This document shows positions 1-37,600 of a stretch of DNA of 64,000 nt, piece after piece. Made by a program: the position numbers and the translations under genes. The stretch is from a virus. The notes under the pieces are model-generated. The model did no database searches, had not been told where the DNA came from, and saw only the letters and a program-made list of their open reading frames with translations. Within the stretch, counting starts at the first letter, position 1. Each line of letters begins with the position of its first letter. Location of the stretch: positions 6,892-70,891 of the IMG/VR virus record IMGVR_UViG_3300009499_000001, one strand, 5' to 3'.

Positions 1-461
1 GCGATGGGGGTGATCGAGGAATTCAGGCGTAGGAAGGTGATGCCCTTGGCCCGGATCTCTACATCCCTCTCCGGCAACAGCCAGTCTCTGCATGGGATGT
101 GGTTCACGATGAACTTGGTTCGGCCCAACAGGCCGTCGCCGGAGTGTTCGTTGCCGATCACATCCTCAAGCTTCTTGCTCTGCTGGAAGATCAGCCGGCC
201 GGGATGGAACAAGGGGTCCCACAGGCTAATCATCGCGGCCCACCACGTCACCAGGAGCTGGCGGGATTTGGGTACGAACATCATCCGGTTGCCCTGCCAG
301 ATCCGCGTCAGCGCCACGATGTGGCGGCGGTAAGCCGGGAACGGCTTGATCGGCTGCTCCTCGTCGTGCTGGTCGAGGGTCCTGACGAAGTAGCGAGCGA
401 ACACCAACGGATCGCCGGCAGCCGCCGCCCAGCGGGCTTGAACCAGTTCACGCTCCGTCAT
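1..461 (-). CDS. terL: Terminase large subunit, N-terminal part (runs off window start)
   Basis: Manual translation from ATG at 461 (GGAGG RBS): MTERELVQARWAAAAGDPLVFARYFVRTLDQHDEEQPIKPFP...FVPKSRQLLVTWW; KSRQ is the T4-type TerL Walker A; lies downstream of terS. Confidence 0.85.
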   Translation of the reverse strand, partial: MTERELVQARWAAAAGDPLVFARYFVRTLDQHDEEQPIKPFPAYRRHIVALTRIWQGNRMMFVPKSRQLLVTWWAAMISLWDPLFHPGRLIFQQSKKLEDVIGNEHSGDGLLGRTKFIVNHIPCRDWLLPERDVEIRAKGITFLRLNSSITPI

Positions 462-1287: not shown

Positions 1288-2001
1288 TTAGGAAACGTCC
1301 CCCCAAGTTGTCCCGCGTACGATGCGCCGGATGTTTCGCTCAGACACCGCATATTCTGTTGCAAGCTTCGCGCAACTTGTGTTTCCATTCTCGTGGCGCA
1401 GACGAATCTGCCGAACCTGGGCCTGCGTAAGGCGCGGCCGAGGGCTCCTCGCGCTGCATGGGCCACCGACATGTTTCCAGATCACGCCGTGCACAATGGA
1501 CCAGATCAACGTCGGACCCACTGCGTATTCTTGCGCCAACGCCTTTTGAGTCATCTCTCCCGTCGCGTAGCGCTCACGGATTGCGAGTACATCCGTAGCC
1601 GTGAGTTTGGCCCGGCCCCCCTTCTCGCCACGTGCAGTAGCCTCCGGTTGAGTACGCCTGCCGTGTCGCTCTCCCGTTGGCGCTCTTTGCTTGGCCTTCA
1701 TATCGGCCATGTTATCTGCATCCGTACCAACCGCAAGATGAGCAGGATTGCAGCAGGGAGGGTTGTCGCAGGCGAGGTGTCGGATGCACATGGCCTCAGG
1801 GACCGAGCCGTTGGCAATGACCCACGCAACGCGGTGGGCACTGTACATCTTGCCTCGCAAGTTGAATCGCCCATAACCCCGTCCATTACGGCCGGCAGTC
1901 CACGGCCAGCATTCATCGGTGCCGCGAACATCAACCCTAGCCCAGAATCTGGAAAGGTCTTTCGCGGTCAGAGGGGGGACGGTAAGGTTCTTGGCAGCCA
2001 T
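1288..2001 (-). CDS. HNH homing endonuclease with two C-terminal HTH-like repeats
   Basis: FWARVD..CWPW...YGRF...AHRVAW...HLACDNPPCCNPAHL..GT..DN..DM (HNH_3-type). Confidence 0.9.
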   Translation of the reverse strand: MAAKNLTVPPLTAKDLSRFWARVDVRGTDECWPWTAGRNGRGYGRFNLRGKMYSAHRVAWVIANGSVPEAMCIRHLACDNPPCCNPAHLAVGTDADNMADMKAKQRAPTGERHGRRTQPEATARGEKGGRAKLTATDVLAIRERYATGEMTQKALAQEYAVGPTLIWSIVHGVIWKHVGGPCSARSPRPRLTQAQVRQIRLRHENGNTSCAKLATEYAVSERNIRRIVRGTTWGDVS

Positions 2002-2072
2002 TGGTGCTCTCCCAACAGGGCATCCTGGTCAGAGCTGCGGGCAGCTCCAGTGCTGTCCGTGGCTCGCTCTCT

Positions 2073-2100
2073 ATCCTACCCACCCCAACCACGCTGTCAA
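2073..2100 (-). promoter_or_regulatory. sigma70-like promoter upstream of HNH/terS
   Basis: TTGACA-16 nt-TAGGAT on minus strand. Confidence 0.55.
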
Positions 2101-2144
2101 GCGGAAACGACAACCCGGTGATGGATTTTCACAACCCGCAAATG

Positions 2145-2220
2145 GGTGTCCGACGGGACTCGAACCCGCAGTCCCCGGGCCCACGACCTAGTGCTCTGTT
2201 CCAATTAAGCCACGGACACC
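2145..2220 (-). tRNA. tRNA-His(GTG), atypical anticodon arm
   Basis: G-1 + GTGTCCG/CGGACAC acceptor with C73, T arm GCGGG-TTCGAGT-CCCGT, anticodon loop TC-GTG-GG. Confidence 0.8.
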
Positions 2221-2235
2221 GGGATCAGCTTACTG

Positions 2236-2580
2236 TCAATCGCTCGCCCATGCAGCCTCGTCCTCGGCCGTGGCCTCGCGGACGAATTCCGCGGTCGTGA
2301 ACGGGCACAGGCACTTGGGCTCAGCCAGAATCTCCACCAAGTTGCTGGCACACCAGGAACTCCCGTTGTAGCGGAAGCGAATCTGTTCCTCGTCCCAGAA
2401 CCCCGGCAGCCGGATGACAGCCTCGACAGTGAACCGCACGACCACGGTGCGCTGGCGGCAGACGCAGTCGGCCTTGTGGTCCTCGCCGACCGGCTGCTTA
2501 CAGTAGAAGCATTCGTCGGGCCGACCAGCGGGCCGTGGCCCGTTCTCCATCGTTACCCGATGAGTCTCAGGATGTTGCAT
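2236..2580 (-). CDS. Cys-rich hypothetical phage protein
   Basis: MQHPETHRVT...CFYC...HKADCVC...WC...CLC; AGGA upstream. Confidence 0.65.
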   Translation of the reverse strand: MQHPETHRVTMENGPRPAGRPDECFYCKQPVGEDHKADCVCRQRTVVVRFTVEAVIRLPGFWDEEQIRFRYNGSSWCASNLVEILAEPKCLCPFTTAEFVREATAEDEAAWASD

Positions 2581-2597
2581 AGCAATCCTTCTGCCTG

Positions 2598-3062
2598 TCA
2601 CCCCGCCCTGGCCCGTCGTCTCACCGAGTAGATCGCCACCCTCCTGGCCGGCGTGCTCCTGACGATCCGCAATCGCGCCGCCGGACGCACGACGCCGCCT
2701 CCCCGCCGCCGGTGCCACCACCGCTCGAGGCGGTCTCGGATGATGATCCAGTGCCGCCGCGGGATGCAATACACTTCCCTGTGTCCCCAGGCACGCTCAG
2801 AACAGCGATCACGCCACAGCCCGTACACGTTCTCGATCTGCTTCAGCGCCTCCCGCACCCGCCGGCGAGAGGCCTTCTTCGTGTTGCCACAGAGGCTTGC
2901 CGCCAGATCGACCACGGCCAAGCCGATCTCCTCCCGGGGGTCCATCCGCCGTGTCCCGGGAGCTGGCTCTGGGGGAAGGCAGGTGAGGACCTGCAAGGCC
3001 CAGGGACTCAGCTTGTCAACGGGGTTGGGCGTGTAGCCTGCTGGCTGTGTGTACTTCGGCAT
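2598..3062 (-). CDS. Hypothetical protein (possible winged-helix)
   Basis: 154-aa ORF in operon orientation. Confidence 0.55.
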   Translation of the reverse strand: MPKYTQPAGYTPNPVDKLSPWALQVLTCLPPEPAPGTRRMDPREEIGLAVVDLAASLCGNTKKASRRRVREALKQIENVYGLWRDRCSERAWGHREVYCIPRRHWIIIRDRLERWWHRRRGGGVVRPAARLRIVRSTPARRVAIYSVRRRARAG

Positions 3063-3834: not shown

Positions 3835-4184
3835 TTCTGGTCCTCTGCCATCCGGGCAAGCTCGCCCCGGAGCCGATCCACTTCTTCATCGGCCTTGTCC
3901 CGCGCCACCCTGGCAGCGATGACTTCATCTCGCCAGTGGGCCTCAGCATCATTGGCTGCCTTCTCGGCCTTGTCCGCGCGGGCTGTGGCTTCGCCGAGAA
4001 GACGCTGGGATTCGGCGAGCTGGCGGCGGACGCAGGCCATCGTTTCGGTTAGTACGATGCCATCTACAATCGCCTCAGTGCCACACGCGAAGGTGATTAC
4101 TTGCTCCTCTGAGTAATCTTCCACCAGCATAAGCCTTTGGTCACAAAACTCTGCCCCGCATTGCGGGCATTTCTCGTCGTTCAT
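3831..4184 (-). CDS. CxxCG zinc-binding + coiled-coil protein (paralog family)
   Basis: CPQCG...FACG...CVRRQLA followed by coiled coil. Confidence 0.7.
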   Translation of the reverse strand: MNDEKCPQCGAEFCDQRLMLVEDYSEEQVITFACGTEAIVDGIVLTETMACVRRQLAESQRLLGEATARADKAEKAANDAEAHWRDEVIAARVARDKADEEVDRLRGELARMAEDQK

Positions 4185-4927
4185 GTCGTGTCCTTGGCGG
4201 CTTCTGCGGCACCTTCGGGAGTGGAATACCAGCCGGTTGCCGTCTCCCAGTCTATGTCATCAACGCAACCGGGGTGCGGGCAGATGAGCCGCAGAGCGGG
4301 GACGGTGGCCACGTGCATGTCTCCACAGGCACCAACGTGATAGACCGTCATGCCCTGGCTGAACGGCTTCCCGTCCGCAGTTTTCGACACCTTGTCGATG
4401 ATGGCCTGGGCCTGGGTGAGGTCTGCCTTGAGCTTGCAGAAAGCGCCGTCTGTGGTTTCCCACCAGCAACTACTGGCCAGTCCAACCGATGGGTCACCGT
4501 AGTCCTCTCGATATACAACGCAGCGGGCGTCCTCCTCCGCGTCGCCGTGTTCGTCCGTTTCGTAGAAATCAACGCCCTCCTGGCGCAGTTTCTCCCACAC
4601 TTCATCAGGTGCGTTCGCGGCTGCGTCTTGGGCCTCCCGTAACTGGACCTTGGCCTCGGCGAGTTCTGCTTTGAACTCAGCCTTTGCCTCCAGATAGGCA
4701 ATGTCCTTTGCGCTGCCGACCATCCCCGCCCTGTTGCGAGATTCCTGTTCTGCCGTTAATTTCCATTCTTTGGCTTCTGCCTTGGCCTCGGCAGTGGCGG
4801 CGTCGATGGCGCGCTGGATGGCAGTAGCCAGATCGTGTGCCCTAAAGCTGCTACGGGCGCGCGAGAAGTCCTGCTTGGCCAGGAATCGCTTCGCTGCTGC
4901 CTTGGCAATGTCTGATGGTTCACTCAT
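4181..4927 (-). CDS. Hypothetical coiled-coil protein
   Basis: Start at MSEPSDIAK (AAAGGA RBS); ATGA overlap with next gene. Confidence 0.65.
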   Translation of the reverse strand: MSEPSDIAKAAAKRFLAKQDFSRARSSFRAHDLATAIQRAIDAATAEAKAEAKEWKLTAEQESRNRAGMVGSAKDIAYLEAKAEFKAELAEAKVQLREAQDAAANAPDEVWEKLRQEGVDFYETDEHGDAEEDARCVVYREDYGDPSVGLASSCWWETTDGAFCKLKADLTQAQAIIDKVSKTADGKPFSQGMTVYHVGACGDMHVATVPALRLICPHPGCVDDIDWETATGWYSTPEGAAEAAKDTT

Positions 4928-5012: not shown

Positions 5013-6002
5013 TCAGACGGCCTTGATCGCGTCCTGCCAAGCATGCCCGTTTGCCTTCAGTCGCTTCTTGAACCATGCCATCAGCACCGCCATGCGCTTT
5101 CGCGCCGGGCTGCGCCCGACCTGTTTCGCCTTGTCGAGAGTTGCCTGTGCCGCCTGGTCTACTCGACCTGCGTGGCCAAGGTAAACATGGTTGGCCATGA
5201 TGCAGATCGACGTGATGTCCGCCTTCTGCTGTTTGGTGGGTGGACCGCGGGCATTGAGACCCACGGCCTCGCGGATCGCCTGGGCGGTCTGGTGTGCCTT
5301 GAATCGTAGCTGTTGACCTTGCTTCTCCGAACCCGAATCTTCCTCCTGCGCGCGCTCTTCCGAATCTTCCGGTTCCCTTTCGGTTTCGTTATGTTCTTCT
5401 GTTGAGTTATGTTCGGGTTCGGATTCCTGTTCTTGAAAGGCTCCGGGAGTTCCCGGAATTTCCGGGAGCGTTGTCGACAAGGCTCCGGGAGTTCCCGGAC
5501 GCTCCGGGACTTTCCGGGGATTCCCGGAATCTCCGGGGCTGTCCGGGAGTTCCCGGACGTTCCCGGAATCATCGGTCGCTGGAACCGGCCAGGGCCGTTC
5601 CTCGACCCATCGCACCTCAGGGTCACACAGCGCCTCGAGGCCAAGTTGAATCTGTTCTTCCGTGAACCGCGTGATGCGCATCAGGGCTCGCATGGCTATG
5701 GGCTTCTGGCCGCGGCCCAGGACATACCCTCGCGAGGTGGGCTTCTGCCTGGCGGCGATCTCGACGAGCTTGTTGAACAGACCCCAGGCGACGGGCCAAG
5801 CTGCCTCCCCATACCTGTCGATGGTGATGTCCGCGACATCCTCGTAGGCCTGGTTGTCCCCCCGGGGCCCGTAGGTGTAACGGCGTGACCAGGGCAGGGG
5901 CGTTTTGCGCTTCCTGTTCTTGCCGTTGGCCTCCCAGGGGCTGCCGTGGTCGTTGACCTCGTAATGCAGTTCCCAGTCCACGATGTAATAGGCTTCGGCC
6001 AT
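5013..6002 (-). CDS. Putative replication initiator protein
   Basis: Globular N-domain, low-complexity linker encoded by iteron-like repeats, helical C-domain; lambda O-like layout next to resolvase. Confidence 0.65.
   Translation of the reverse strand: MAEAYYIVDWELHYEVNDHGSPWEANGKNRKRKTPLPWSRRYTYGPRGDNQAYEDVADITIDRYGEAAWPVAWGLFNKLVEIAARQKPTSRGYVLGRGQKPIAMRALMRITRFTEEQIQLGLEALCDPEVRWVEERPWPVPATDDSGNVRELPDSPGDSGNPRKVPERPGTPGALSTTLPEIPGTPGAFQEQESEPEHNSTEEHNETEREPEDSEERAQEEDSGSEKQGQQLRFKAHQTAQAIREAVGLNARGPPTKQQKADITSICIMANHVYLGHAGRVDQAAQATLDKAKQVGRSPARKRMAVLMAWFKKRLKANGHAWQDAIKAV
5437..5568. repeat. Iteron-like array TCCGGGA/TCCCGGA (putative origin of replication)
   Basis: AAGGCTCCGGGAGTTCCCGGA exact at 5437-5457 and 5479-5499; palindrome TCCGGGAGTTCCCGGA again at 5542-5557; ~9-bp periodic CCGG. 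Confidence 0.75.
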
Positions 6003-6714: not shown

Positions 6715-7369
6715 TGCGTGTCTCCAACAGCTTGAAGGTGATTGCCCATACCCCGTCATTGTTGGACCAGGGGTGGCCGCGCTTGGCGTTGAGGGAATCC
6801 CAGAGCTGCCGAAAGTCGCGATAGGCCAGGATACCCTTCTCCCCGCTTGGCCCGGTGTCCTCTATGGGGACTCCCTCATCTTCAATATCCTCGAAGCTGA
6901 TGTCCTGGATTTGCTCGACCCGCACTTCCCGCACTTCCAGCCATAGGCGCGCTGCCCACTTGGGCATGTGGATGGAAGGACGCCAGCGGGAGCCTGCGGG
7001 CTTATTCTCGTCAGCAGCAAACCATATCCGGTGTCCCGGCCCGATGTCCGATGGGCGGCAATCGTTGAGCATGGGATGGGCTGCCCATTGCTCTCTCACC
7101 CACAGCGCGTCCCCGGACTGGCCGTAGGGGCAGCGGACTTTCTGAGGCGTGAGCTCCCCGGCATCACGCTTGTTTCTGCCGCGAGACACAACAGCTCGCG
7201 TCACAGAACCGTCCAGCTCGATATACACGTCGCCGGGCTCCAGGCTCTGAGACCATCCGGTGCGGTGGCCCACAGGCTGTACGCGCATGACCCGCCGCGT
7301 CTGGGTCGTCCGCTTAGCCAGGATGCCGCAGACGGACTCAGCCGACATGATGATGGGATGGTCAGCCAT
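6695..7369 (-). CDS. ASCH/PUA-like phage protein
   Basis: [20 protein letters not shown]...CPYG..GD.LWVRE...[27 protein letters not shown]. Confidence 0.8.
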
Positions 7370-8687
7370 CGTTCACCCCCGCCCCTTCGGCGGTGCTCAG
7401 GGCAGGCATCTCGTTCCATTCCCGGCCGTCCAGCAGCCGGCCGGCCTTCTTCTTGCCGACGCGATAGTAGGTGTCGGCGACGCCAATCGTCTTTATGGCC
7501 GAATCTGGCACATCCCACGGCAGCATGACCGAGTCCGGGCGCTGTTGCCGCTCAGCCTCGAACTGTTCATCCGGGAACCACTGGCCCCAACCCTTGAAGA
7601 AGTAGGGCACGACTGCCGCCTGGCACTGGTCACGGAGCGCTCGCGCCCAGTCCGGGTGCATGGGCCGCGCCCCCGGGCCCGTCTCACCCCCGCAGATGAT
7701 CCAATCGAGGATGCGAGCCTTTCCCGTTCCACGGCAATAGGGACATTCACTCCGCAGGAGATGAGAGGCGTCGTCGCAGCGGTCCTTGTTGCAGCAGTGG
7801 GCGCAGCCCAAGGTGCCGTCTGATCGCTCGAATGTCCGAGTTGGCAAGCTAAGGTCGACAGAGCCCAACAGCGGCTCGCAGGAAACGAACCGAACCGCCG
7901 CCGCGCATTCCATCAGCTTGTCAATTCGCCACAGGCATGATGCGTCCTCCACCGTGACCCCCAGCCAGACGTTAGATAGCGGAGCGGGGAATGCTCCGCT
8001 CAGCGCATCCTGCCGGACGCTGATGTATCCGCCTGTCAGTTCAACGGCGACCCCATGTTGATCGCCTCGCGGGTTCCATCGGAAGCCATCGCAAACATGG
8101 TCCGGGCGGTGCCACCAATCCACTTTCCCCGTTGCTCGGAAATTCGGCGTAACAGGCTCGTCCTTCCACTCGTTGCGGCCGCGCAGGCAGCCTAGAAAAA
8201 AGGAACGACATTCACTACAGGCCTGTTGGCGCAGGAACAGGTTTGGCGCTTTGTGCGGCTTGCCGTGGCGGCAGAATGTGTGCGTCTTCTCCGGCTTCCA
8301 CCACCGATGGAACCATTGAGCCATGCGCTCGGGTCGTTTCGTAAGAAGCTGAAAGGTGTGTTGTGGGCAGTCGGCCATGACCTGAAAGACCTGGGCGATG
8401 AAGTCGTCGGGTACGTCCCTGTGAAACAGGTCGGCCATGGAACAGACGAAGATCGTCCTGTGCTTCCGCCAGCCCTGCGGCTCGCCAAGCCGATCAGGCT
8501 GCAACGTCACGTCGAAACCATTGCGGTAGGCGGCCTTGCCCATGGCCTTCAGCCGCTGGGCCATCCGCCGGGCGTAGCAGTTCTTGCACCCGGCCGAGAC
8601 AGGCGAGCATCCGGTCACGGGATTCCATGTGACGCCTTGCGTCCCATCAGCATTCTTTACCCACTCGATCTTGGTTGTGCTTCCCAT
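7362..8687 (-). CDS. DUF5131 / phage Gp37Gp68 family protein with Cys-rich insertions
   Basis: TKIEW...[20 protein letters not shown]...[11 protein letters not shown]...[12 protein letters not shown]...NVWLGVTVE...FVSCEPLLG...[17 protein letters not shown]. Confidence 0.92.
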
Positions 8688-9126: not shown

Positions 9127-9494
9127 CGTCGCCAGATCGTTACCTTCAATCTCCGCCGGCCCCAAATCAGGGCTTGGCGGTGGGTGGGAAAAAGAACATC
9201 AAAGCGGACCAGTGTACCGGACGATACGATGGCTCCTCCTCGATCCAGTACGGGTACATGAGCACCACCGGCATACCCTGGGATGAGTACGCGACTACCG
9301 AACGGTAGCTCCACCGGCGCCGCGACGAGGTAGCCTCTCGCAGGATAACCGGACGCTGTAATTCCATCAGACCACCTCCCGCAACATTTCGGGCATGGGC
9401 AGTACGCAGTCACCACAGCATCCACCACCACAGGAGCCGGCTGAGGACCGATCAGGCCGGCCAGGACGATCAGAATGTGGGTGAGGGGGGTCAT
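9123..9494 (-). CDS. 3D (Asp-Asp-Asp) domain protein, MltA-like peptidoglycan lytic enzyme, with N-terminal hydrophobic segment
   Basis: VTAYCPCPKCCG..SDGITASG....VAAP...PFGS.V.IPGY.....VLDRGGAI...FDVLFPTH..AL.WGRR. Confidence 0.85.
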   Translation of the reverse strand: MTPLTHILIVLAGLIGPQPAPVVVDAVVTAYCPCPKCCGRWSDGITASGYPARGYLVAAPVELPFGSRVLIPGYAGGAHVPVLDRGGAIVSSGTLVRFDVLFPTHRQALIWGRRRLKVTIWRR

Positions 9495-10306
9495 CCCGTC
9501 ATCCTCCGCTGAATCTTCTCGAACGTGCCACTCCCGCATTTCGCACACCGCTGTGGGCGGCGCCCTTGCCGCAGCTCGTTGCCGCAGGCCCGGCACAGCC
9601 AGGAGACTCGCAGGGCTCCGCGGAGCTTCTTGACTTCCCGGTTCATTGCGTGCCGACGCCGATTGGTTTCGGCGGACCGTTCACGGCACAGCCTGAGTTG
9701 CTCGGGATTGCGCTCGATCTGCAAAGCCAAGTGGCGCCGTCGGTCAACCAGGAGGAGGTTATCCAACCCGTCGTTCATCGTGTCGCCGTCGGCATGAACA
9801 ACGAAGCAGCCGTCCGGAATCGGCCCGCGGGCTTCCTGCCAGATGTACCTTGTCAGGGGGATCCAGCGGCGACGAAGCGGGCCGTCGTCGCGAATCTTGA
9901 TCCATCGCCGGAGCCTTCCTTTACGCGGCCGGCCGGTTGGCCCGCGCCGCCGGCTATCCCGACGCACGGTGACTGTGCCGACCGGCCGCCACTTCCTGGC
10001 GGCCCTGCCCCCGATGTGTCCCGGCTTGAACTCGGTCTCTGGCGACAGGTGAATACCCTTGAACCCGCTGTTCCAGGTCACGTGCCCCTTTGTGAAGCGC
10101 GTGCGCTCGCCCCATCGCCGGAGGGTGCGGCGCCGGACCTTGCGCCGCTGGGCCGCCGTCGTATGCCGTCGCCACAGGCGATTGAGCGCCGTCCAGCCGA
10201 CTCGGTACTGTTTCCGGATGGCGCCGAACGTGTCGGTCCCGGCCAGCAGGCGTTCCACGATCTGCTCCGCATCGGCCTCAAGCTTTTGGACGTTGCCTCT
10301 ACCCAT
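9491..10306 (-). CDS. HNH endonuclease with FxxG repeats and C-terminal Zn ribbon
   Basis: TRFTKGH/TEFKPGH repeats, RPVGT, IW....GPIP....V.HADGD.MN..LDNL; CxxC..CxxC tail. Confidence 0.8.
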   Translation of the reverse strand: MGRGNVQKLEADAEQIVERLLAGTDTFGAIRKQYRVGWTALNRLWRRHTTAAQRRKVRRRTLRRWGERTRFTKGHVTWNSGFKGIHLSPETEFKPGHIGGRAARKWRPVGTVTVRRDSRRRGPTGRPRKGRLRRWIKIRDDGPLRRRWIPLTRYIWQEARGPIPDGCFVVHADGDTMNDGLDNLLLVDRRRHLALQIERNPEQLRLCRERSAETNRRRHAMNREVKKLRGALRVSWLCRACGNELRQGRRPQRCAKCGSGTFEKIQRRMTG

Positions 10307-24256: not shown

Positions 24257-25272
24257 GTCTGATCCCCTCCTTCCCCTGCCGGTTCGGCGTGCTGGGCTTT
24301 GGCGGCTTGGGCGGCTTCGGAGACTGGCAAAGATTCCTGCGGCGTTCTCTTACACATCCCGCAGACGGGCAAGTTCGGCCCATTCCAGTGACCGCAGCCG
24401 CAGCACCAGTCATGGCGTGTGTCCACGATGGCCTTGAGCTGTTCTGCCCGTTCAACGATGTTGCCCGGTCCTGCCCACTGATAGCCGAGTTCTCCGCCGC
24501 CGAGGGCCTGCCAGACCTGTCGCAGCAGCACATCGGAGTGGTCGCGGTCTATCTTGATCCCAGCGAGCCGACGTTTCACTTCCGCATACCGTGCGGGAAT
24601 GGCCGCAAGGTGCTTGGCGTGTTCTATCAGCTTGGCATTGGACACGCTCAGGATGCCGGGCTCTGTCAACCCGAACGCTGCTGTCAGTTCGTGGGCAAAG
24701 GCCAGATTCGCCAGCGGCTTGACGATGGGGACCTGCTGGCCGGCCACGTTGACCGTGCCGTCGGTTACCTGGGCGAGTTGTTCCTTGGCCTGGGCGAGCG
24801 CCTGCATGACTTCATCGGCGCGGTCTGTTACCGAGCCAGCCGACGGAACGGTGGCGAAAGTCGTCATGCCGAGTATCTTTTCTGTGCGGTTGACCAACTG
24901 GCCCCAGTCCCGGGCTTCGCATGCGAGGCGCTCGGCCCGCCTCGTCTCTGCACTCAACTGGTACGCAGCGACCTTGTCGCGGCGCTCCAGCTCGCCGACT
25001 CGCTCCTTGGCTTTGGCGACCAGTTCGGGAAGGTCCGAATGCCCCCCGCCCTTGAACCAACCACCCGCGACGGTGATCTCGTCAAGTATCTGTAGCAGTT
25101 CTTCAGCCTGCTTCTCCCGCTGGGCGACCTGGGCGAGGAGGCATTTCTTCGAGGCAACGTAACTCCACGGCTTCCCGTCCTTGCCGTGGCCGGTGATCGT
25201 GGTCCCGCATTCGTAGGTCAGCGGTACGGTCGGCGAAAGATCCTCGCCGCATCCTGGACACTTGGAGATCAT
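24253..25272 (-). CDS. CxxCG + long coiled-coil paralog with C-terminal RanBP2-like Zn finger
   Basis: CPGCG...YECG...CLLAQVA; WCCGCGHWN....VCGMC. Confidence 0.7.
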   Translation of the reverse strand: MISKCPGCGEDLSPTVPLTYECGTTITGHGKDGKPWSYVASKKCLLAQVAQREKQAEELLQILDEITVAGGWFKGGGHSDLPELVAKAKERVGELERRDKVAAYQLSAETRRAERLACEARDWGQLVNRTEKILGMTTFATVPSAGSVTDRADEVMQALAQAKEQLAQVTDGTVNVAGQQVPIVKPLANLAFAHELTAAFGLTEPGILSVSNAKLIEHAKHLAAIPARYAEVKRRLAGIKIDRDHSDVLLRQVWQALGGGELGYQWAGPGNIVERAEQLKAIVDTRHDWCCGCGHWNGPNLPVCGMCKRTPQESLPVSEAAQAAKAQHAEPAGEGGDQT

Positions 25273-25637
25273 GCCGTCTTCCTTCCCGCCCTGGCCTTCC
25301 TGGCCGGGCGCCCCGCCGGCAGACGCTTGCCGGCCCGCTCAAGTTCGTCGGCGGCTGCTGCATCCGCGGCCACCTTCATCAACCGGGTCACATGCTGCAT
25401 GACGCGGGGGTCCCCGCTGGCGAACAGGCGGTGCCACCGGCTGATCTTGTGACGGACCGAGTTCGCGGCCTGGTCGGCCCGGACGCCCCGGGCGATGTAC
25501 GGCGGGGCTAGGTCCTCGACGATCATTTCATCCAGAGTCCCTTGTTTTCGCTTGGCCCGAGGCCCTGCCGTTCCGTGCAGTGCAGCGAGTTCGTCCGTGG
25601 TCCAAGGGGTCTGGCCGTAAGCAGTTGCAACGGCCAT
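25269..25637 (-). CDS. Hypothetical protein (first gene after structured RNA)
   Basis: Start MAVATAYGQ with GGAGG RBS; the ORF-track extension runs through a tRNA. Confidence 0.6.
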   Translation of the reverse strand: MAVATAYGQTPWTTDELAALHGTAGPRAKRKQGTLDEMIVEDLAPPYIARGVRADQAANSVRHKISRWHRLFASGDPRVMQHVTRLMKVAADAAAADELERAGKRLPAGRPARKARAGRKTA

Positions 25638-25649
25638 GGCCTTGTCCTC

Positions 25650-26430
25650 CGGCGCGGGGTTACCCCCACAAGGGGCGTGGGGGTCAGAAATTCGCAGTCG
25701 CGGTGGATCGAGAATCCAGCGTGGGGGTAATGGTTTGCCCGTCACGGTTGATCCAGCTCGCCCGAGAATGGTGCTATGCAGCGACTTGGTAAAGGTCCCG
25801 ACGCCGACCGGATCCTCCGGACGTGCACAGCCGTCCCTGACTCCGGCGTCGGGTGTGCAAACAACAAGCCCTACTCTGGTAGCAAAATGAGGGCTCGCGG
25901 GGTGGCAATGGAAGGAGTTCGCCATGAAATCCAACTGAACATCGCTCGCCCGCGAGCCTGCGGCAATGAACAATGTGCCCTGGTGCCAAGTGGGGGGAGA
26001 CTCAGCACCAGGGCGGTGTACCCAGCTTCCGGGGGAAAAAGCCGGGCTTGCTACTGCCCGCTTGGGGTAAAGCGGGCACGGCATCGGACTCATAATTGCG
26101 GGGGCCGGAGTCGAACCGGCGACCTCCAGGGTATGAACCTGGCGTGCTGGCCGCTGCACCACCCCGCTGTGAATGGCCGAGCGACCGGGAACCTGCCACT
26201 GGTCTGTGAGGCCGCTCGGCCAAGAATGGTTGCCCTGGAGGAGGGAGCCCAGGGCACTACAGAATACGGCCTGCCAGGAGGGAGGGCCGGCCGCTATCCT
26301 CAAAACGGCCCGGTCGGCCGCATGGACCAGACCGGGCGCACAAGAAAGGCAAGAGGACCCGCCGCCACAGCAAGACTCTCGCCGACTTGTCTTTGCGTTG
26401 TGGAAACCCAGAATGGCGGCGGATCTTGTC
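25650..26430 (-). ncRNA. Putative long structured leader/ncRNA (tandem GC-rich hairpins) surrounding tRNA-Met
   Basis: About ten successive inverted repeats (e.g. CCCGACGCCG/CGGCGTCGGG, GCCCTGGTGC/GCACCAGGGC, TGGCCGAGCG/CGCTCGGCCA); no credible ORF. Confidence 0.55.
26096..26168 (-). tRNA. tRNA-Met(CAT), initiator-like
   Basis: AGCGGGG/CCCCGCA acceptor with 1:72 mismatch, anticodon arm CCAGG-TTCATAC-CCTGG, T arm GCCGG-TTCGACT-CCGGC. Confidence 0.9.
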
Positions 26431-26437
26431 ATTGTCC

Positions 26438-26641
26438 CTACCCCGAGAGTCCTGCAACGGCCTCAGCAGCGACTTCCTCGGCTGCCTCCTGGGCGACCTT
26501 GCGGAGGTCCAGGGCCTCGCGAAGGAGAACCCTGACCATCGGAGCGAATTTGCGGTCCTCGGCTTTTGCCAGCCGTTCGACCTTGTTGGCCAGCTTGCCG
26601 GTGACGATCAGGAATTTCGTTTTCTCAGCCTTCTCTGGCAT
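26438..26641 (-). CDS. Ribbon-helix-helix (Arc/CopG-like) regulator, Cro-position
   Basis: KFLIVT..LANKVERLAKAEDRKFAPMVRVLLREAL; first gene of early operon. Confidence 0.75.
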   Translation of the reverse strand: MPEKAEKTKFLIVTGKLANKVERLAKAEDRKFAPMVRVLLREALDLRKVAQEAAEEVAAEAVAGLSG

Positions 26642-26697
26642 TGCTGTTCGTGCCTTTGGGTCGTCAGTTCTAAAAACTTCTGTAACCTTCTTCCATC

Positions 26698-26725
26698 ATC
26701 TTAACACCCAATATCGTCCTGTCAA
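26698..26725 (-). promoter_or_regulatory. Early lytic promoter
   Basis: TTGACA-16 nt-TAAGAT with extended TG, in the AT-rich divergent intergenic region. Confidence 0.7.
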
Positions 26726-28853: not shown

Positions 28854-29018
28854 GCGATGTGACCTCGGTTTGAGGTTAGACACGGAGGTTCGACAAGGCC
28901 TGCAAAAGGTTGGGACGCATCGTCCGGATGCCCCGGCGAATCCGGACACAATCGCTTATGCGAACATGAGTAACGCCATAACCCCCGACAGGCCAAAACC
29001 TTGGGAAAGCCGGCCTCA

Positions 29019-29064
29019 CTGACTCTTAATCAGCGGGTCCGGGGTTCGAATCCCTGGCGGCGCA
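29019..29064 (+). other. attP core: 3' half of tRNA-Lys(CTT)
   Basis: CTGA-CTCTTAA-TCAGCGGGTCCGGGG-TTCGAAT-CCCTGGCGGCGCA; anticodon and T arms without D arm or 5' acceptor, 39 bp upstream of integrase. Confidence 0.88.
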
Positions 29065-29102
29065 ATGACTTACGAAAATGGTGAGGCACGGGGTTAGGCA
29101 CT

Positions 29103-30173
29103 ATGGCCCTGAAGAAGCTCCCCGGGTCGCTCTGGAAGCACCCGAAAACGGGCGGCTGGTACTGGCAGGTCCGCAAACCCGGCGAGAAAAAACGTCGGTC
29201 TTTTCCGATGCGGCTGGTCGGCCAGCGGTACGCCACGAAGGTCAAGAGTCTCGCCCAAGCGCGGCAACGGCACTTGTGGAAGCAGTGGATGGGTCCGCTC
29301 GGCGCGCCTGTCCGAACCATCGAGACCTGGATCCTCGACTTCCAGGACTGGAACCGCAACACCGCCGCAGAACCTCAGGTCCGCTACAACGGCTGGATCG
29401 TCCGCCAGTTCGCTTCGAGTCAGGGGATCAGAGAGCCCATGGACATCACGCCCGAGGCCATTCAGGATTACATCACGGCCCGTCGCGAAGGCACGCTCGG
29501 GGACGACGGCGGTGCAGAACCGAAACGGAGGGCCAGTCAACGTACGCTGGTCGCTCACCGCAATGCCCTGGGGAAGTTCTGCCGGTTCCTGATGCTCCGT
29601 CGCCAGACCGACCACAACCCGGCTCGGCTGATCGAGCTGCGCCAGCCATCGAAGCGGCCCCCGCGGTATCTCACTGATCGGCAGATCAGCCGGCTCCTGA
29701 AGCAGACGAAGAAGATCGGTCCGCCGTGGATGTATCTGGCCGTCTGCGTTGGGCTGTACGAAGGCCTCCGCCGCGGGGAGATCGCAGAGCTGACCTGGGC
29801 CGACATCGGGACCGACGGCATGGTCGTGCATGCGGGGAAGACGGCGGACTGGCGGACCGTGCCGATCTTCCCCGAGATGGGGGCGGTTCTCGAATCGACG
29901 CCGCGTGGCGATGACGCCGAGTACGTCTTCCCCCGCCACAATCCGCGTTGGTGGGGAGAGCTGCTCAGTCGGATCACGGAGCAGTTGCCGGTGTTCCTCG
30001 ATGCCGAAAAACAGTGGAGCCTTCTGCGGAACACGTTCGCGGTGCAGCGGGCTCGGGGTGTCGGCATGAATCGCCCGGCGACGGTCTGGGAGCTTCTAGC
30101 GTGGCTGGGCCACAAGAACCCGACGACCACAATGCGGTACGTGAACATCGCCCGGGCAGCCCGCTCACTGTGA
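29103..30173 (+). CDS. int: Tyrosine integrase/recombinase
   Basis: GLRRGEIAELTWADI, GKT, LRNTFA, LGHKNPTTTMRY. Confidence 0.93.
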   Translation: MALKKLPGSLWKHPKTGGWYWQVRKPGEKKRRSFPMRLVGQRYATKVKSLAQARQRHLWKQWMGPLGAPVRTIETWILDFQDWNRNTAAEPQVRYNGWIVRQFASSQGIREPMDITPEAIQDYITARREGTLGDDGGAEPKRRASQRTLVAHRNALGKFCRFLMLRRQTDHNPARLIELRQPSKRPPRYLTDRQISRLLKQTKKIGPPWMYLAVCVGLYEGLRRGEIAELTWADIGTDGMVVHAGKTADWRTVPIFPEMGAVLESTPRGDDAEYVFPRHNPRWWGELLSRITEQLPVFLDAEKQWSLLRNTFAVQRARGVGMNRPATVWELLAWLGHKNPTTTMRYVNIARAARSL

Positions 30174-31616: not shown

Positions 31617-34600
31617 CTACCCTCCCAGAACCGCCCTGGCCTTCGCGAACGCCTCGGCGGCGGCTGTGTCGTCCCGCTCAAGGGCTTCCTTGCAGAGCCG
31701 TGTGTACTTCGACCGAACCGAACCCCTGGCCTTCGGGTAGACCCGAGCGACGGGGACTTTCAGCTTGCGCGCCCAGCCAGCGATGGTTCGCTTGTTCTTT
31801 CGTTCCTGGTCGGTATCCCACGCCGTCCCGGTCAGCGCCGCTTCGACCTTGCCCTCAAGCAATTCGGTGTACGCCAGCCGGACTTCGTCGGCGCTTTCCG
31901 CCGGCGTCGCCATGAAGGCCAGCTCCCCATTCATCGCGGCCTTGGCCATCTTGACCATGCGCTGCTGAATCGCCCGGTAGCCCTCACGTTTGGCCTCATC
32001 AGAAGCCTCCGAGTCGATCAACGCCCTGCCCTGCTTGCGGAGTTCGGCCAAGTGCCGGCTGATGCGGTGCATGGCGGACCGTTTGGCGCGCTGAGCGTGA
32101 GGGAAGTCCCTGCCGCGTTGCTTCGCGCTGCCGTGCTGGCGGTCCAGGTCCTCCATCTCCCGGTAGAAATCATTGAACACCCGCGTCGTGCCGGGCCGCA
32201 AGAAGGCCCGACCGATCGCCGGGATGTCTTGGAGCCCCGGGGGACGCGCGCCCTTCTCGGGAAGGACGCCGGCCTTCCGCAGAACCGTCTCGGCACTGCG
32301 GATACCAGCGACCGGCATGCCGCCGGTGTAGCTCCGTAGCAGGTGTTCGATCTTGGCTGGCGAGACGTTCAGCAACCTGCCGAGGGCCTTGGCGGTCTCC
32401 GTCGTGTACTGGTAGAACTGGTCTTGAGGTTCCAGGCGGCGCAGGGCTTCGGACACAATCGGCCGCTGGCGGAACCAGTCCCATCCCCCCGGTCCGAACG
32501 CGACTTCGATGGGTCCCTTGATTGCTGTCGGCGCGATCGGCGGCATGAAGCTGCGAATCGACTCTGCGGCACCTTCTTTGAAATGCTTCGGATCGTTGCG
32601 GTACAGGGATTCGCAGGCGGCTTCTGGCAGCGAACCGAACAGCATGCCCCACTCGAACGGCCGCGGGACGCGGATGATCGCGTCACCAACGGGTACATGC
32701 CAATAGCGATACTTCTCCCACACCGGAAGGTCGATGTACCAGTCCTCGTCCTTTATCAACCACCACAAGAACAAGGTCGGGCCGGTAATCCACGCCAGGC
32801 CCCGCAGCGTTGATCGCACGGGATGCTGACGGTAGGTCTGGATCATGCGGTTGGGACCTTGAATCTGGGCGTTGTGGAAGGGCACGACCCGATTCAGCCA
32901 CATCGCGACCGAGCCCCCCTCGCGGAAGTCCACGGTCACGTTCGCCGCCCGCATCTGGGCGTCGAGATATTGAGCCAGGGTGATCGTGTCGCCCGGCTTC
33001 CAGCCGGTTTCTTCCAACGCTGCCTTGAACTCGGCCAGTCGGGGCCCCATCTCTGTGATGGAGAACAGTTGGCGCAGCGATTCGATCGGATGCTTCATCC
33101 AGTTCAAGACTTTGCGGGTTGGGCTATTTGCAAGAACTTCGTCCAGCAAGTCCTGTGTGAAGACTCGGTCGATGGCCAAAGGCTGCGCCATCTCACCGCC
33201 CCCAGCTTTGTGTAGCCGAGCCACTTCTCTGCCGAAGACATGGTCCATGACGCCGCAAATGTTGCGGTAGATGAGAGATGGCAGGGTAGCCTTGCGTCCC
33301 TTGGTCCTCGTCTGCATGATCGCCGTGCCGGTGTCGCGCGTGGGATTCGTGTACCAAGCGAAGCCAGCCCGCAGTCCCGTTGTGGACAGCCGCAACATCC
33401 TAGCGGCCTTGCCGAAAGTCCACTCAACGATCTTGGGTAACTCAAACTGCTGGTCCACCGCCATCATCGCCCGGTACATGTCCGGGGCGACCTCATACAT
33501 CCGCAGCTTGCCGTGTTGCCACAGGACGATGATGTTGTCCTTGGCCTTGTGGTGGTACACGTTCTGGAAGATATTGATAACGGCGTCCAGGTCGGCATCC
33601 TCCAGGGCCACGTCCGCCGCTTCGAGCTGGGCCTGGAGTTGGCGAATCTGCGCGGAAGTAACTCGGCCACCCGGCGCGACCTTCTCGACGTACTTGCCCA
33701 TCCCCTCGTAATGCTCGGTCGCCTCGACCAGCATCTTGCCGACGCGAATCTTGTCGGCGAGGCTGAAGATTCGGTCGGCGTACATCATCGAGCTTTCCAG
33801 CGGGGAGATAATCGGGCGGCCTGATCCCTTCATCCTCCGAACCACTGATGGCAGACCAGCCAAACGGCCTCCTCCGACACCCTTCCCCTGCCGTAGGTTC
33901 TCGGCTTCGAGGCTTATCATCCTGGGAACATAGTGGGGATACATGCGGCGCATCTTGACTTTCCCTGCCGGATCCAAACCGCCCGCGTCCATGCCATAAT
34001 CAAGAAGCTGATCGTGCCACTTCGTGGTTCCGTCCGCTGCTTCTACCCAGCCTGGCCGGTCGCCGAATTGCCGGACGTTGAACCGTGCATCCGCCAGCGA
34101 GATGCCGGGATTCTTGCCGACAGCATGGATGTCGATGGCGTGTCGGGAGTACAGGAAAATCTCAAACTCAAGTTGCGTCTGCGGATCCCGCAAGTCCTCC
34201 ATGATCGGTTCCCAGACTTCCGCAAGGCTCGGACCGACCCTGTTGCCCATAACGTCCGGCATGTAATCCAGCACTGCCCGGCGCGCCCGGGCGGGGCCGG
34301 CCATGCTGGTGACCTTGGCCATCTGGGCGAATCGGTACTCGGCGGGGATGTCCGCGAGCTCCGTCGTGTCCGCCATGGCGTACATCGCCCGCCACAAGGG
34401 CTGGAAGCGGTTGACGAACTTCTCCAGGCCCTTCTGCCAAGCTTCCTTGGGGTCTGCGAACACGGCTCGCACCGTCTTCCAGCGCGTGGATTTCTTGTCG
34501 ATCTGGGCCCCCACTCGTGCCACGGCGCCCTGTGCCCGCCATTGGGTGATCGTTGCCTTGGCGTCGGCGATTGCCTCGGCGTACTCGCTGGTGGGCAGGA

Positions 34601-37600
34601 AGTCCTCCGTGAACCACTCGTACATGAGCGGGGCGGCGTCCTGAGCGTTCTCGGTGGTCAAGTAGAGCCGGACGAACTCCGCGACCCCTTCTTTGGTCCG
34701 TTTCTTCTCCGGGTCGTAGTCCAGCTCGCGGACTTCCGCTCTCACGTCCTTCGACAGCCGGCGAGAGATTCGTTCCCGCTTGTCGAGGTGGTGGGCGACT
34801 TCATGGCATTGAGAGGCGACATCGCCGTATCCCTTCGTCCGGGCAACTTCCTCGAACCGCTTGTAGATGCCCGCGTACGGGCCGCGGTAGTGGCCCGTCC
34901 GCAAGGGAACCCCGAAGCCTTCCGAGAGCACCGTGCGGATGTCGTTGATGCTGACGGGCCGGTCGGCCGGTTCCATCGAGACGGGGACTGGCGGCGCGGC
35001 GACCGGGCCGTGATCCACCTCGCCACTCCTGTTCAGGTATCTGACATCGGTGACCGGCCGGCTCTCGGTGACGCGCTGGAATACCTGGAGGGCTTCGTCG
35101 CCGGTCGGGATGAAGTACCGCACCTTGTAGCCGACGCGCTCGCGGAAGACGCCGTCGGCATCGAGTTCTATGTGAAAGCTGAGGTCGGGACCCAGGACCT
35201 CCAGGCGCGTCTCGCCGCCCACGAGCTTGGACCGGATCGTCCAACCGTTGCTGAGAACCAGGATGGTCTCACCATCGAGGGTCTTGTCGATCATCTGCTG
35301 GGGCGTGAGATCCATCTTCGGCTTGTCGGCACCCAGGGCACGCAGGATCCCAGCTACGTCGTTGGCGTTGATGATCCGCCCCAGCAGCTCCTCCCCTTCG
35401 TTTGTCAGCATCCGTCGTACACGCGGTCTCGCGCCGCGAATCCGGTCCCAGATCGGCAAGAGAACGCCCGTGATGAGGTGCTGTTCGCTCTCGCGGAACT
35501 CCGGCAGTTTCTCGACCTGCTCATCCCAGAGTCGTCGCGCCTCATCTTCATCGAGCCGTCGCCAGTATTGCTCGTTGTAGTCGTTGTCGATCCGCTCCAT
35601 GTCGATGAAGTCGTGGCCCTTCTGGTCGATCTGGCGGTACTGTCGTACGACCCGACCAGTCCTCGTTTCGGTGTGCGTGGGCCCCTGGACGATGGCGTAG
35701 ACCTTCCCTGCTCTTTTGGACTGGACGTAGAACAGGATGGGATGGCCGGCCCGGTGTTCGCCGGCCTGAAGGTTGTCCCATGTCACCGGGACGATACGAG
35801 TCGAGAGCTTGACCTTGACGTACTTGGTCTCCGCGCCCGTTTCCGCATGGGTGTAGACAACGCGGTCTTCCACCTTGTCAATTCGGTCGGCACGGACTGT
35901 CTCAATCCCGCGGTCGATGGTTCCGAGGCGAATGGCAGCGTCGATCCTCTCCAAACGGCGCTGGTCAAAGGCCTCGAAAATCTGGTTCTGTGTGTCGGTC
36001 GGGCAGGACAAGAGCCGGTTCAGGAATTGCCGCATGACCGGCAGGGTCTGGCGGAGATTGCCCTGGCCGTCGATGAGCCTCAGGGCCAGCGCTTCCTGCA
36101 CCTCGCCAATGCTCAATCCCTCCACGTCATCTCGGTACAACTCTCGCCAGAACTGCGATAGGGCCTCCCGGGCTTCGGTCGTGTGCAGGTTGTCCTCGGC
36201 GCTGAACAGGCCGCCACTGGTCGCCTCGCGCTGGCCTTTGGTGAGGGCCCCGAGCTGGTCAAGCCTCTGGGCAATGACGGACGTGAACCGACGTTCGGCG
36301 CTGAGATCAGTGGTGCACAGCGTGTAGATGGGAGCACTGGCTTGATTGGAACGGTGAGTTCGACCCATGCCCTGGAAGGCCTGCTCGGCACGGTAGCCAG
36401 GCTGAATGATGTAGTGGGAACGCCGCTGCTGGTTCTCATGTGCCAAGGAAGCGTGGTAGCTATCACCCGTGTTGCCGGCCCCGGACATCACCAGCAGGAA
36501 TTTCTTGCCGCCCATGAAAGCGGCGATTTCTGCGGGATTCTCTCGGTCGGCGTTGCGGCTGAGACGCTCTCGCTTTCGCGTCCCATCCTCCTGTAGGACT
36601 TCCACGACGCGCTGTCTTCGGCCGGTCACTTCGGCGACGTTCTCCACGGCGAAGTGGTCGAGGATGTAGTCCAGCGGGCCGCGCGGCACAGACAAGGCAC
36701 CCAGCTTGTCCAGCAATTGGTCCCGCATCCTCACGGCTTCCTGGTTCAATACGGGATTGCCGTCCGAGTCAACGACCGGCTCCATGGTAACATTGCCCTG
36801 GTCATCCGTTTCCTCCTGGTATTGTTGAACGGGGAAGGTGTGCTCTACAAGTTGCATCAGCGAATCTCGCGGCGTGATGTCAATATCATCCAGGTCCTGC
36901 TCGCTTTGCATCCCAGCCAGCGCCCGGGCCGTGGCAGCTTCGTTGGTATTGACCAGTTGGAGCACGACGCTACGTCCTTCAGCCAAGTCCTTTTCCGCGG
37001 CCTTGACCACGGTGGGCATCTGCATGGACATCAGGATCTGATTGAAGAATCGCAGGTTTGCGCCCCAGAAGGCGCCGCGAGCCCTCATCTTCGCTCGCGC
37101 GTTGCCGTCTCCCCCAGTGAGTTGCAGCGCTTCCTCGATGTTGTTCAGCACGATCCGCCAGGCCCTGGCGAACGTGTCGTACGCCTCCCGCTGGTTAGGC
37201 CTCAGGGTATGTTCGACGCGTTTGTATTCAACCGTCCCCTTCTCGGTGCCATCGTTGTAGGAGATGTTGCGGGCCATGTAGGAACCCATGGCCTTCATGT
37301 CCCGGGCGACCGTTTCCATCGCCGCTACACCACTTCGCGCGATCTCGTTGATGAAGGCCGCTTTGTTGGGGAACGGCGTACCACGTCCCCACAGTCCGAG
37401 GCGATCCGCATACGCGTAGTTCGCCACATTCGTTGCCGCAGTTGCCGTTGCGTAGACCATGCGACAATTCGGCAGGCGGTTCTGCAACTCGACTCCGACG
37501 CGAGCTTGTTGCGAGGGTGCGCGGGTTCCGAACGTCGTTCGGATGGCGATGGCGTTGCCCATGTTGTGCGCTTCGTCGAACACCAAGACGCCATCGAAGT

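Follow-up and report, generated by a model that had tools for sequence, protein, structure and literature searches.

The region described here is an 800-nucleotide (nt) gap on the minus strand (positions 25638–26437) of a 64,000-nt stretch of viral DNA, referred to below as the window, which covers 64,000 of the 70,891 bases of IMG/VR record IMGVR_UViG_3300009499_000001. The gap lies between the stop codon of a 67-residue Arc/ribbon-helix-helix (RHH)-like gene, the first gene of the early operon, and the ATG of p122, a 122-residue early protein of a rare family. It is a real, strand-specific, exceptionally structured and non-protein-like region of the early operon. Its minus strand is predicted to fold into a chain of hairpins within which a tRNA-Met is nested, the loops of these hairpins are rich in C, one reading frame crosses the gap without a stop and continues into p122, and structured leaders with such a frame recur ahead of p122 in related loci. 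We tentatively propose, at somewhat less than even confidence, that the gap is a cis-acting structured leader that is translated through and gates the early operon. With similar reserve, the gap may be regarded as the form taken in this phage by a structured leader with an open frame that is typical of the family and precedes p122 in a small group of temperate phages of Planctomycetota.

Structure of the gap and its nested tRNA

The initial annotation, made from the sequence alone, described an ~800-nt structured stretch with an embedded tRNA-Met at the head of the early operon and about ten strong hairpins on both sides of the tRNA. Its coordinates and content hold, and local folding places 12 stable hairpins on the minus strand, five (H1–H5) 5' of the tRNA and seven (H6–H12) 3' of it, with ΔG values of −15 to −32 kcal/mol. 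H1 (26356–26425; 70 nt, −31.7 kcal/mol) is followed by a U-rich tail and is a possible terminator for the RHH gene. After H2 (26308–26337; −21.6 kcal/mol) come H3 (26261–26300) and H4 (26231–26256), with apical loops CUCCCUCCU and CUCCCUCC, respectively, which form a tandem duplicate with a 37-nt period and 76% identity. H5 (26174–26222; −29.7 kcal/mol) ends 5 nt ahead of the 5' end of the tRNA, and H6 (26049–26083; loop UACCCC) begins 12 nt past its 3' end. H7 (26020–26047), which has the loop UCCCCC and four G-U pairs, forms well on the minus strand only. The array continues with H8 (25977–26014; −27.2 kcal/mol, loop CUCCCCCC), with H9 (25939–25976, or an alternative long stem at 25892–25958) and H10 (25856–25907), which together occupy 25856–25976, and with H11 (25797–25853; −31.6 kcal/mol); H12 belongs to the p122-proximal unit described below. 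On the opposite (plus) strand, positions 25911–25937 carry a strong Shine-Dalgarno (SD)-like sequence, GGAAGGAG, followed by a four-codon mini-open reading frame (ATG AAA TCC AAC TGA), probably by chance.

Folding no better than that of shuffled sequence had been named as an outcome that would undo the idea of a structured RNA, and the minus strand beats its dinucleotide shuffles at each length folded, with z values of −3.21 for 272 nt (1 of 200 shuffles as good), −3.84 for 457 nt (0 of 100) and −3.98 for 802 nt (0 of 20). The plus strand of the gap gives a z of −1.89. When 319 segments of 400 nt across the 64 kb were ranked for each strand by GC-adjusted minimum free energy, segments 26001–26400, 25801–26200 and 26201–26600 took ranks 1, 2 and 4 on the minus strand; segment 25601–26000 took rank 129, and the ~240 nt proximal to p122 are therefore unexceptional in stability. 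Through 23 G-U pairs, the minus strand gives the more stable structure for 11 of the 12 hairpins (summed ΔG −258.7 kcal/mol, versus −226.2 kcal/mol for the other strand). The array is a feature at the level of RNA, on the strand taken to be transcribed. Elsewhere in the window, the most stable plus-strand stretch is 5201–5800 (GC-adjusted z of −3.4 and −3.3, ranks 1 and 2 of 319), which lies inside or antisense to a 329-residue minus-strand open reading frame (ORF) at 5013–6002.

The loops of the array have a distinctive composition. A C-motif loop was defined as an apical loop containing CCCC, CCUCC, CUCCC or CCCUC; this definition was chosen after viewing the window and was then used for all loop statistics, so that the related loci provide the independent check. 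Such loops are found in six of the nine strongest minus-strand hairpins of the gap versus 7 of 241 in the other 63 kb (Fisher p = 4.2e-7), although the number of independent events is below six because H3 and H4 are tandem duplicates. About 60% of the bases of the gap are paired, and among the unpaired bases the fractions of C and G are 0.36 and 0.16, as compared with 0.23–0.30 and 0.21–0.25 in coding controls. The few hairpins with C-rich loops outside the gap include 9463–9505 (minus; loop ACCCCCCUCACCCA), which sits in a poorly coding 800-nt stretch between ORFs 7362–8687 and 9491–10306, and 182–236 (minus; loop CCCCUUGUUCCA).

A search of the whole window with Rfam models at gathering thresholds identified only the tRNA in the gap and no other family, in agreement with the proposal in the initial annotation that the RNA is an undescribed one. 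Its further suggestion of a multi-domain RNA like GOLLD or ROOL was not borne out: these and other large structured RNAs gave no match at E ≤ 10 over 25400–26700 and none at gathering thresholds over the whole window, and the architecture is one of separate hairpins strung like beads. With a permissive cutoff, the best four non-tRNA matches were 6C, Scr3202, ar14 and ar7, and sX13 was also matched; all are small RNAs (sRNAs) and all scores are far below threshold, the other sub-threshold matches being to unrelated families at chance level. The match to 6C (RF01066) scores 27.5 bits against a gathering threshold of 47 (E = 0.33), with H7 and H8 aligned to the full 75-position model, and that to ar14 scores 19.4 bits against a threshold of 58.8. 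6C, ar14 and sX13 are sRNAs with C-rich loops, but the CUCCCUCC(U) loops of the gap differ from the exact ar14/CcsR loop motif, CCUCCUCCC.

The nested tRNA (26096–26168, minus), identified by ARAGORN and by Rfam model RF00005 (60.2 bits, gathering threshold 29, model positions 1–71), is a tRNA-Met(CAU) of the initiator type without an encoded CCA. Bacterial initiator tRNAs combine a 1:72 mismatch with the pairs G2:C71 and C3:G70; the acceptor stem of the phage tRNA, GCGGGG/CCCCGC, has both pairs together with an A1xA72 mismatch. Its initiator-type relatives in Planctomycetota have C1xU72 or C1xA72 on the same stem, and the phage tRNA deviates from them in having A1 rather than C1, U11:A24 rather than A11:U24 and the anticodon loop UUCAUAC rather than CUCAUAA. 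Stable hairpins lie 5 and 12 nt from the ends of the tRNA, and cleavage by RNase P and RNase Z would therefore yield hairpin-capped fragments. A degenerate tRNA array was considered and rejected, there being no further tRNA-like match at E ≤ 10 in 25400–26700. In Planctomycetota genomes, repeated 3' fragments of an initiator-type tRNA-Met occur downstream of the intact gene and resemble the stacked att sites of integrated elements; locus L020 (genome G310) has four extra copies within 1.5 kb (1504–3021), and locus L017 (genome G161; 449–498 and 1502–1574) is a further case.

The stop-free frame, related loci and genomic context

The initial annotation had found no credible ORF in the gap. Codon-position GC is indeed flat there (0.64/0.62/0.65, as compared with 0.71/0.57/0.77 in p122 and 0.73/0.39/0.73 in the RHH-like gene), and the gap is the longest low-periodicity stretch of the window; however, the frame in phase with p122 contains no stop in 265 codons (P = 0.006, from dinucleotide shuffles, as for all frames below). 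This frame opens with an ATG (26430–26432, minus) 5 nt past the RHH stop and extends through p122, for 387 codons in all.

Five related loci, reached via p122, were seen as DNA, and four of these together with the window make up the leader-bearing set. L005, from a metagenome-assembled genome (MAG) of Planctomycetota (G001), has a 1.3-kb leader; L031 and L033, from genomes of the same order as G001, have a leader without a tRNA and a leader with a nested tRNA-Met, respectively. These three loci are prophage-like and each has a divergent repressor-like gene. No repressor-like gene was seen in the two metagenomic loci, L007, which has a leader, and L006, which has none and in which another gene ends 3 nt before the p122 start. 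The in-phase frame is free of stops in all four leaders, over 434 codons in L005 (P < 5e-5; 0 of 20,000 shuffles), 183 in L007 (P = 0.049), 175 in L033 (P = 0.009) and 169 in L031 (P = 0.093), and the other two sense frames of the leaders have 2–11 stops each. In L005, L031 and L033, p122 was called short, yet the upstream frame is open. The ATG of the frame is 6–7 nt past a predicted sigma70-like −10 hexamer in all four relatives. Within the open frame, the tRNA anticodon CAU falls in phase as a His codon, both in the window and in L033, and apparently also in the translation recorded as protein P0004. Four small ORFs that look plausible also lie in other frames at positions 3941–4765 of the L005 leader; two are forward (75 and 55 residues, with SD-like sites) and two reverse (~51 residues each), and the p122-phase frame is stop-free (0 of 434 codons) across all four.

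Selection keeps one frame open across the array, but the encoded peptide does not behave like a protein. Codon-position GC is flat in every leader (in L007, GC at the third position is 0.68 versus 0.87 in the p122 part), no peptide similarity between loci was detected beyond the last ~50 codons, and the leader frame has no Pfam match. In AlphaFold2 (AF2) models, the 60 residues upstream of p122 have predicted local distance difference test (pLDDT) scores of 53–59 and no secondary structure, versus more than 92 for the p122 part, and the leader peptide is predicted to lack a fold. Conservation of a protein-coding sequence throughout the region had been listed beforehand as a ground for refuting an RNA element; it is the openness of the frame that is conserved, and outside the last ~50 codons the peptide is not. 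Since the frame is open and the coding signal is flat, the simplest reconciliation would be that ribosomes read the leader through and that the peptide is irrelevant.

The structural features of the gap recur in the relatives. The z values for folding of the leader are −8.0 in L033, −6.6 in L031 and −2.5 in L007. C-motif loops are present in 5 of 19 strong leader hairpins versus 1 of 68 outside the leaders (p = 0.0016), and in 7 of 24 versus 1 of 82 when hairpins with ΔG ≤ −10 kcal/mol are counted. The ratio of C to G among unpaired bases is 1.6–3.1 in all five leaders versus 1.0–1.4 in three coding controls. The tRNA-Met of L033 (1081–1154), which has the anticodon loop CUCAUGC and an unusual T loop, UCCGAUU, is flanked by hairpins 2 nt before and 1 nt after it, and one of these has the same CUCCCUCC loop as H4 of the window on a different stem. 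P0004 contains the translated image of the T-arm and acceptor end of a tRNA(CAU), followed directly by the p122-proximal unit; this image suggests a tRNA-Met in the corresponding locus and, because it adjoins the proximal unit, the linkage of tRNA and p122 recurs. The tRNA is absent from three of the five leader-bearing loci seen as DNA, and H6–H11 are lineage-specific.

Searches with the DNA of the gap returned 18 records of a phage collection, all covering the tRNA only and no more than 9% of the query, only the self match in the phage's own genome, and nothing below E = 0.04 in G001. The 3' array gave two marginal matches among 401 Planctomycetota genomes (E ~ 4e-4 per genome) that were judged to be due to chance. 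No close relatives were found in IMG/VR with p122, the RHH protein or alignments A1 and A4, and a search with the SbcC-like gene identified two distant phages, both without the leader. Of two further loci with weak p122 matches, L035 was rejected since it lacks the leader architecture, and L034 has no tRNA.

The p122 gene (25269–25637, minus) starts at ATG 25637 behind the SD sequence GGAGGA (25645–25650), and its stop overlaps the start of the next gene. Its AF2 model (pLDDT 93.6) predicts a confident, novel-looking fold with no PDB match at E ≤ 0.001 (best E = 4.3), and the protein matches nothing in Pfam or PHROG. Among 1.84 billion representatives, HMMER identified 23 p122 relatives; of the 22 other than p122 itself, 13 were called from the conserved start and 9 with upstream extensions, and the ATG or GTG start with a G-rich site ahead of it is conserved in all 23. 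The last ~50 codons of the extended calls contain three motifs, H-S/T-x-I-I/V, L/F-P-P and P-H-x-G-x-G-G, which hold a constant phase while their spacing varies by whole codons. Their RNA counterparts are a (C/A)UGCAU..AUUAUC element, the first C5 tract and a C-tract/G-tract hairpin just ahead of the SD. In the window, this p122-proximal unit, which is common to the relatives, occupies 25638–25790 (minus) and comprises a CUGCAU..AUUCUC motif (25764–25781), the first C5 tract (25721–25730), the C-tract/G-tract hairpin H12 (25662–25684) and the SD; both C tracts are able to pair with the same G tract (25660–25669). The consensus of this hairpin over five loci has 12 pairs, 3 of them compensatory. 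A long stretch aligned to protein P0017 by phmmer was rejected when BLASTP did not confirm it.

The phage is temperate. Its record has direct terminal repeats and a completeness rating of 100%, and the GC content of the window is ~63%. The predicted sigma70-like promoter of the early operon (26698–26725, minus; TTGACA-16-TAAGAT with a TG element) comes from a consensus scan that gave one site versus 0.3 expected. The RHH-like gene (26438–26641, minus) occupies a Cro-like position and has a weak match to phrog_3431 (E = 0.0036). A tyrosine integrase gene (29103–30170) is 3 kb from the gap, and RecE-like, RecT-like and SbcC-like genes are further along the minus strand, on which 31617–44375 is a single open reading frame of 4252 residues, very long for a phage of 71 kb. 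A short distance upstream of the integrase gene, at 29018–29065 (plus), lies a tRNA-Lys(CUU)-like sequence of which the 3' two-thirds are present (anticodon arm, T arm and acceptor 3' strand). Several contigs from other organisms in the source run have only those ~40 nt in common with the phage, whose own contig also closes upon itself at this point; the sequence is likely to be the core of the phage attachment site (attP). The probable host is a planctomycete, since p122 homologs are present in the MAG titled Planctomycetota and in two more genomes of the same order, and since the phage tRNA-Met is 79–84% identical to tRNA-Met genes in 64 of the 401 sampled Planctomycetota genomes.

Proposed action of the leader and rival explanations

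In the proposed mechanism, the leader would be transcribed on the minus strand from the early promoter, and its RNA would fold into the hairpin chain, with C-rich, G-poor unpaired parts and with the initiator-type tRNA-Met nested within. Ribosomes would start at the ATG 5 nt past the RHH stop in the window, or at a 5'-terminal, leaderless-type ATG in the relatives, and, meeting no stop, would keep the RNA covered until p122. On a bare leader, the exposed C-rich loops would oppose downstream expression as Rho-loading (rut-like) patches or, alternatively, by masking G-rich ribosome-binding sequences such as the p122 SD and the G5 tract; transit of the ribosome would lift this block. PMC12360218 describes several leaders in which translation of an upstream ORF (uORF) gates the access of Rho, and reports that Rho subunits bind short single-stranded YC-containing segments with linkers between them. 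According to PMC4965119, ribosomes bind to the 5'-terminal AUGs of SD-led mRNAs, and these AUGs can influence the gene downstream. The nested initiator tRNA might feed back on initiation driven by the start codon, because leaderless translation is, according to PMC9031893, strongly enhanced by extra fMet-tRNA. We infer these steps, from transcription and translation of the leader to the action of Rho or of anti-SD loops and the feedback by the tRNA, from the features described above.

Several points weigh against this proposal. The promoters are predicted, being consensus matches only, and the window lacks the leaderless geometry because the RHH gene, with a 5' untranslated region (UTR) of ~56 nt, precedes the leader. 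As p122 has its own SD and a start that is conserved in all 23 relatives, read-through is unnecessary for its expression, and L006 has p122 and no leader. Any message that is read through would be severed if the tRNA were excised. Unlike classical rut sites, which are unstructured, the leader RNA is mostly paired; in the masking alternative, the p122 ribosome-binding region is not among the 25 best predicted loop partners of 819 candidate starts. Among the relatives, the open frame of L031 is not significant alone, the L007 leader has no C-motif loop, and no nucleotide homology of the array was detectable between the window and the four leader loci.

The C-rich loops could instead act in trans. 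RNase P together with RNase Z/E would excise the tRNA, hairpin-capped or linker-cut pieces would persist, the smaller ones being cut at A/U-rich linkers, and their loops would pair with G-rich SD-type sites in host or phage mRNAs. An sRNA cassette released by RNase P/Z cleavage had been put forward in the initial annotation, and hairpins do abut both ends of the tRNA, at 5 and 12 nt in the window and at 2 and 1 nt in L033. Stable GC stems carry the loops CUCCCUCC(U), CUCCCCCC, UCCCCC and UACCCC, the best sub-threshold Rfam matches (6C at 27.5 bits, Scr3202, ar14, ar7 and sX13) are all sRNAs, and many phage genes have G-rich SDs. According to PMC8034643, RNase E cuts CcsR RNAs, with CCUCCUCCC in each loop, from a ~680-nt precursor in which a small protein is also encoded, and PMC6486639 reports that 6C's C-rich loops act on G-rich ribosome-binding sites with no chaperone. 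We nevertheless consider such a cassette unlikely: it leaves the stop-free frame and its leaderless-type start geometry unexplained, the array differs in sequence from locus to locus, although conservation is usual for trans-acting sRNAs, the tRNA is missing from three of the five leader-bearing loci seen as DNA, all of the Rfam scores are far below gathering thresholds, and prediction of loop targets among phage start regions gave nothing specific. It is less probable again that the hairpins are passive, serving as terminators, processing guides or exonuclease blocks around a tRNA between two cistrons, with the frame and the loops as by-products. H1 and its U-rich tail resemble an intrinsic terminator after the RHH gene, hairpins closely flank the tRNA, and the array is lineage-specific, the tRNA image in P0004 leading directly to the proximal unit and L006 having no leader; but independent loci of unrelated sequence share the loop composition and the open frame, twelve hairpins far exceed the needs of processing, and the leaders of L031 and L007 are structured yet have no tRNA.

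The open frame itself could be explained by coding if at least some of the p122 product were a longer form whose N-terminal extension is disordered and evolves fast; the hairpins and the tRNA image would then lie inside the gene. The frame is open in all five leader-bearing loci, gene callers gave 9 of the 22 non-self relatives upstream extensions, the three motifs of the extended relatives keep their phase despite spacing shifts of whole codons, and the first motif coincides exactly with a Met in L005 and P0008. The flat codon-position GC in every leader, the lack of similarity past the last ~50 codons and of a Pfam match, the low pLDDT (53–59) and absence of secondary structure in the 60 residues upstream of p122, the conserved ATG/GTG with its upstream G-rich site, which marks a short start, and a complete 60-bit tRNA gene in the frame make this explanation, in our estimate, marginally less probable than that of passive hairpins. 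A DNA-level element, namely an attP with arm sites at the tRNA, an origin or a packaging site, is very improbable. tRNA genes are common integration targets, Planctomycetota genomes contain duplicated 3' pieces of this type of tRNA-Met (L017 and L020), and the integrase gene is 3 kb away. However, the G-U pairs make the hairpins favor one strand, which is not expected for DNA elements, and only one foreign contig overlaps the tRNA-Met, over 35 nt. The tRNA-Met was rejected as attP; the other contigs of the source run share only 29018–29061, where the 70,797-nt phage contig closes on itself.

A more speculative and decidedly doubtful extension of the translated leader would make it a module that reprograms translation initiation, combining an SD-free 5' AUG, an initiator tRNA and anti-SD-like loops. 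The early transcript would begin with, or be coupled to, a 5' AUG that needs no SD, the nested initiator tRNA would selectively boost initiation driven by the start codon, and the loops CUCCCUCC in the window and CCACCUCCUU in L033, which we take to copy the anti-SD tail of 16S rRNA, would mask the SD sites of competing mRNAs. The infected cell might thereby shift from SD-led to leaderless-type translation, giving a positive-feedback switch at the decision between lysis and lysogeny.

To our knowledge, the regulatory RNA of Planctomycetota phages is essentially uncharted. The five loci provide, with coordinates, a recurrent design that consists of a chain of C-loop hairpins, a stopless frame shared with the downstream gene and sometimes a nested initiator tRNA, with the start codon at the predicted transcript start in the relatives. 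Gating of the operon by ribosome transit, if confirmed, would represent a new type of leader control, with no stop for the leader peptide and a tRNA inside the leader, and a natural case that ties the supply of initiator tRNA to leaderless translation; with loops that act in trans, the gap would instead be the first array of anti-SD RNAs carried by a phage. The loci also illustrate a limit of gene callers: in 9 of 22 relatives the annotation adds an N-terminal extension that looks spurious, and one of these extensions includes the translation of a tRNA gene.

Comparison with known systems

No report of an unbroken frame combined with a 5'-terminal start, an anti-SD-like hairpin chain and a nested initiator tRNA was found in the open-access literature, in which no search was aimed at this exact combination, and the gap belongs to no Rfam family other than tRNA. 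Its parts do have counterparts. T4 species 1 and 2 RNAs are structured RNAs of unknown function that come from the same precursor as the phage tRNAs; they lie within a tRNA cluster, whereas the gap is within a regulatory leader, and no relation in sequence or in Rfam was found. In lambda, the cro-tR1 layout places a leader site directly after the Cro gene. The gap, at the head of its operon and after a gene in a Cro-like position, resembles this arrangement and also the heads of operons with translation-gated Rho leaders (tnaC, speFL, cruR and mgtA-type). As in the Rho-gated leaders of PMC12360218, the unpaired segments of the gap are C-rich and G-poor, and ribosome occupancy would decide downstream transcription. 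The short uORFs of those leaders end in a stop, in contrast to the frame of the gap, which is stopless into the next gene on an RNA that is mostly paired, and no antiterminator was identified for the gap.

The ATG at the predicted transcript start in the relatives, with p122 retaining its own SD, is comparable to the Escherichia coli 5'-uAUG set of PMC4965119 and to the leaderless lambda cI mRNA. The leader frame differs from 5'-uAUG mRNAs in being 169–434 codons long, in phase with the gene, rich in hairpins and in some cases occupied by a tRNA, and in the window it starts after an upstream cistron.

There is also a likeness to RNAs with C-rich loops. The CcsR/cuckoo RNAs (ar14) of Alphaproteobacteria are tandem stem-loops with CCUCC-type anti-SD loops, to which the tandem H3/H4 with CUCCCUCC(U) loops may be compared. 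They are co-transcribed with a small protein gene, in its 3' or 5' UTR, from a precursor of a few hundred nucleotides, according to PMC8034643. The gap differs in its host phylum, its nested tRNA, its open frame and its lack of sequence conservation between loci; neither the RHH-like protein nor p122 has a Pfam match at E ≤ 0.01, and there is therefore no DUF1127 neighbor. In 6C (RF01066) of Actinobacteria and sX13 of Xanthomonas, two neighboring GC-rich hairpins whose loops contain at least five C residues recall H7 and H8, which are, however, part of an 800-nt phage leader and not a free-standing gene of ~75 nt as in 6C. By analogy, the gap would work most like a combination of these C-rich-loop RNAs (6C, CcsR/cuckoo and sX13) with the translation-gated leaders.

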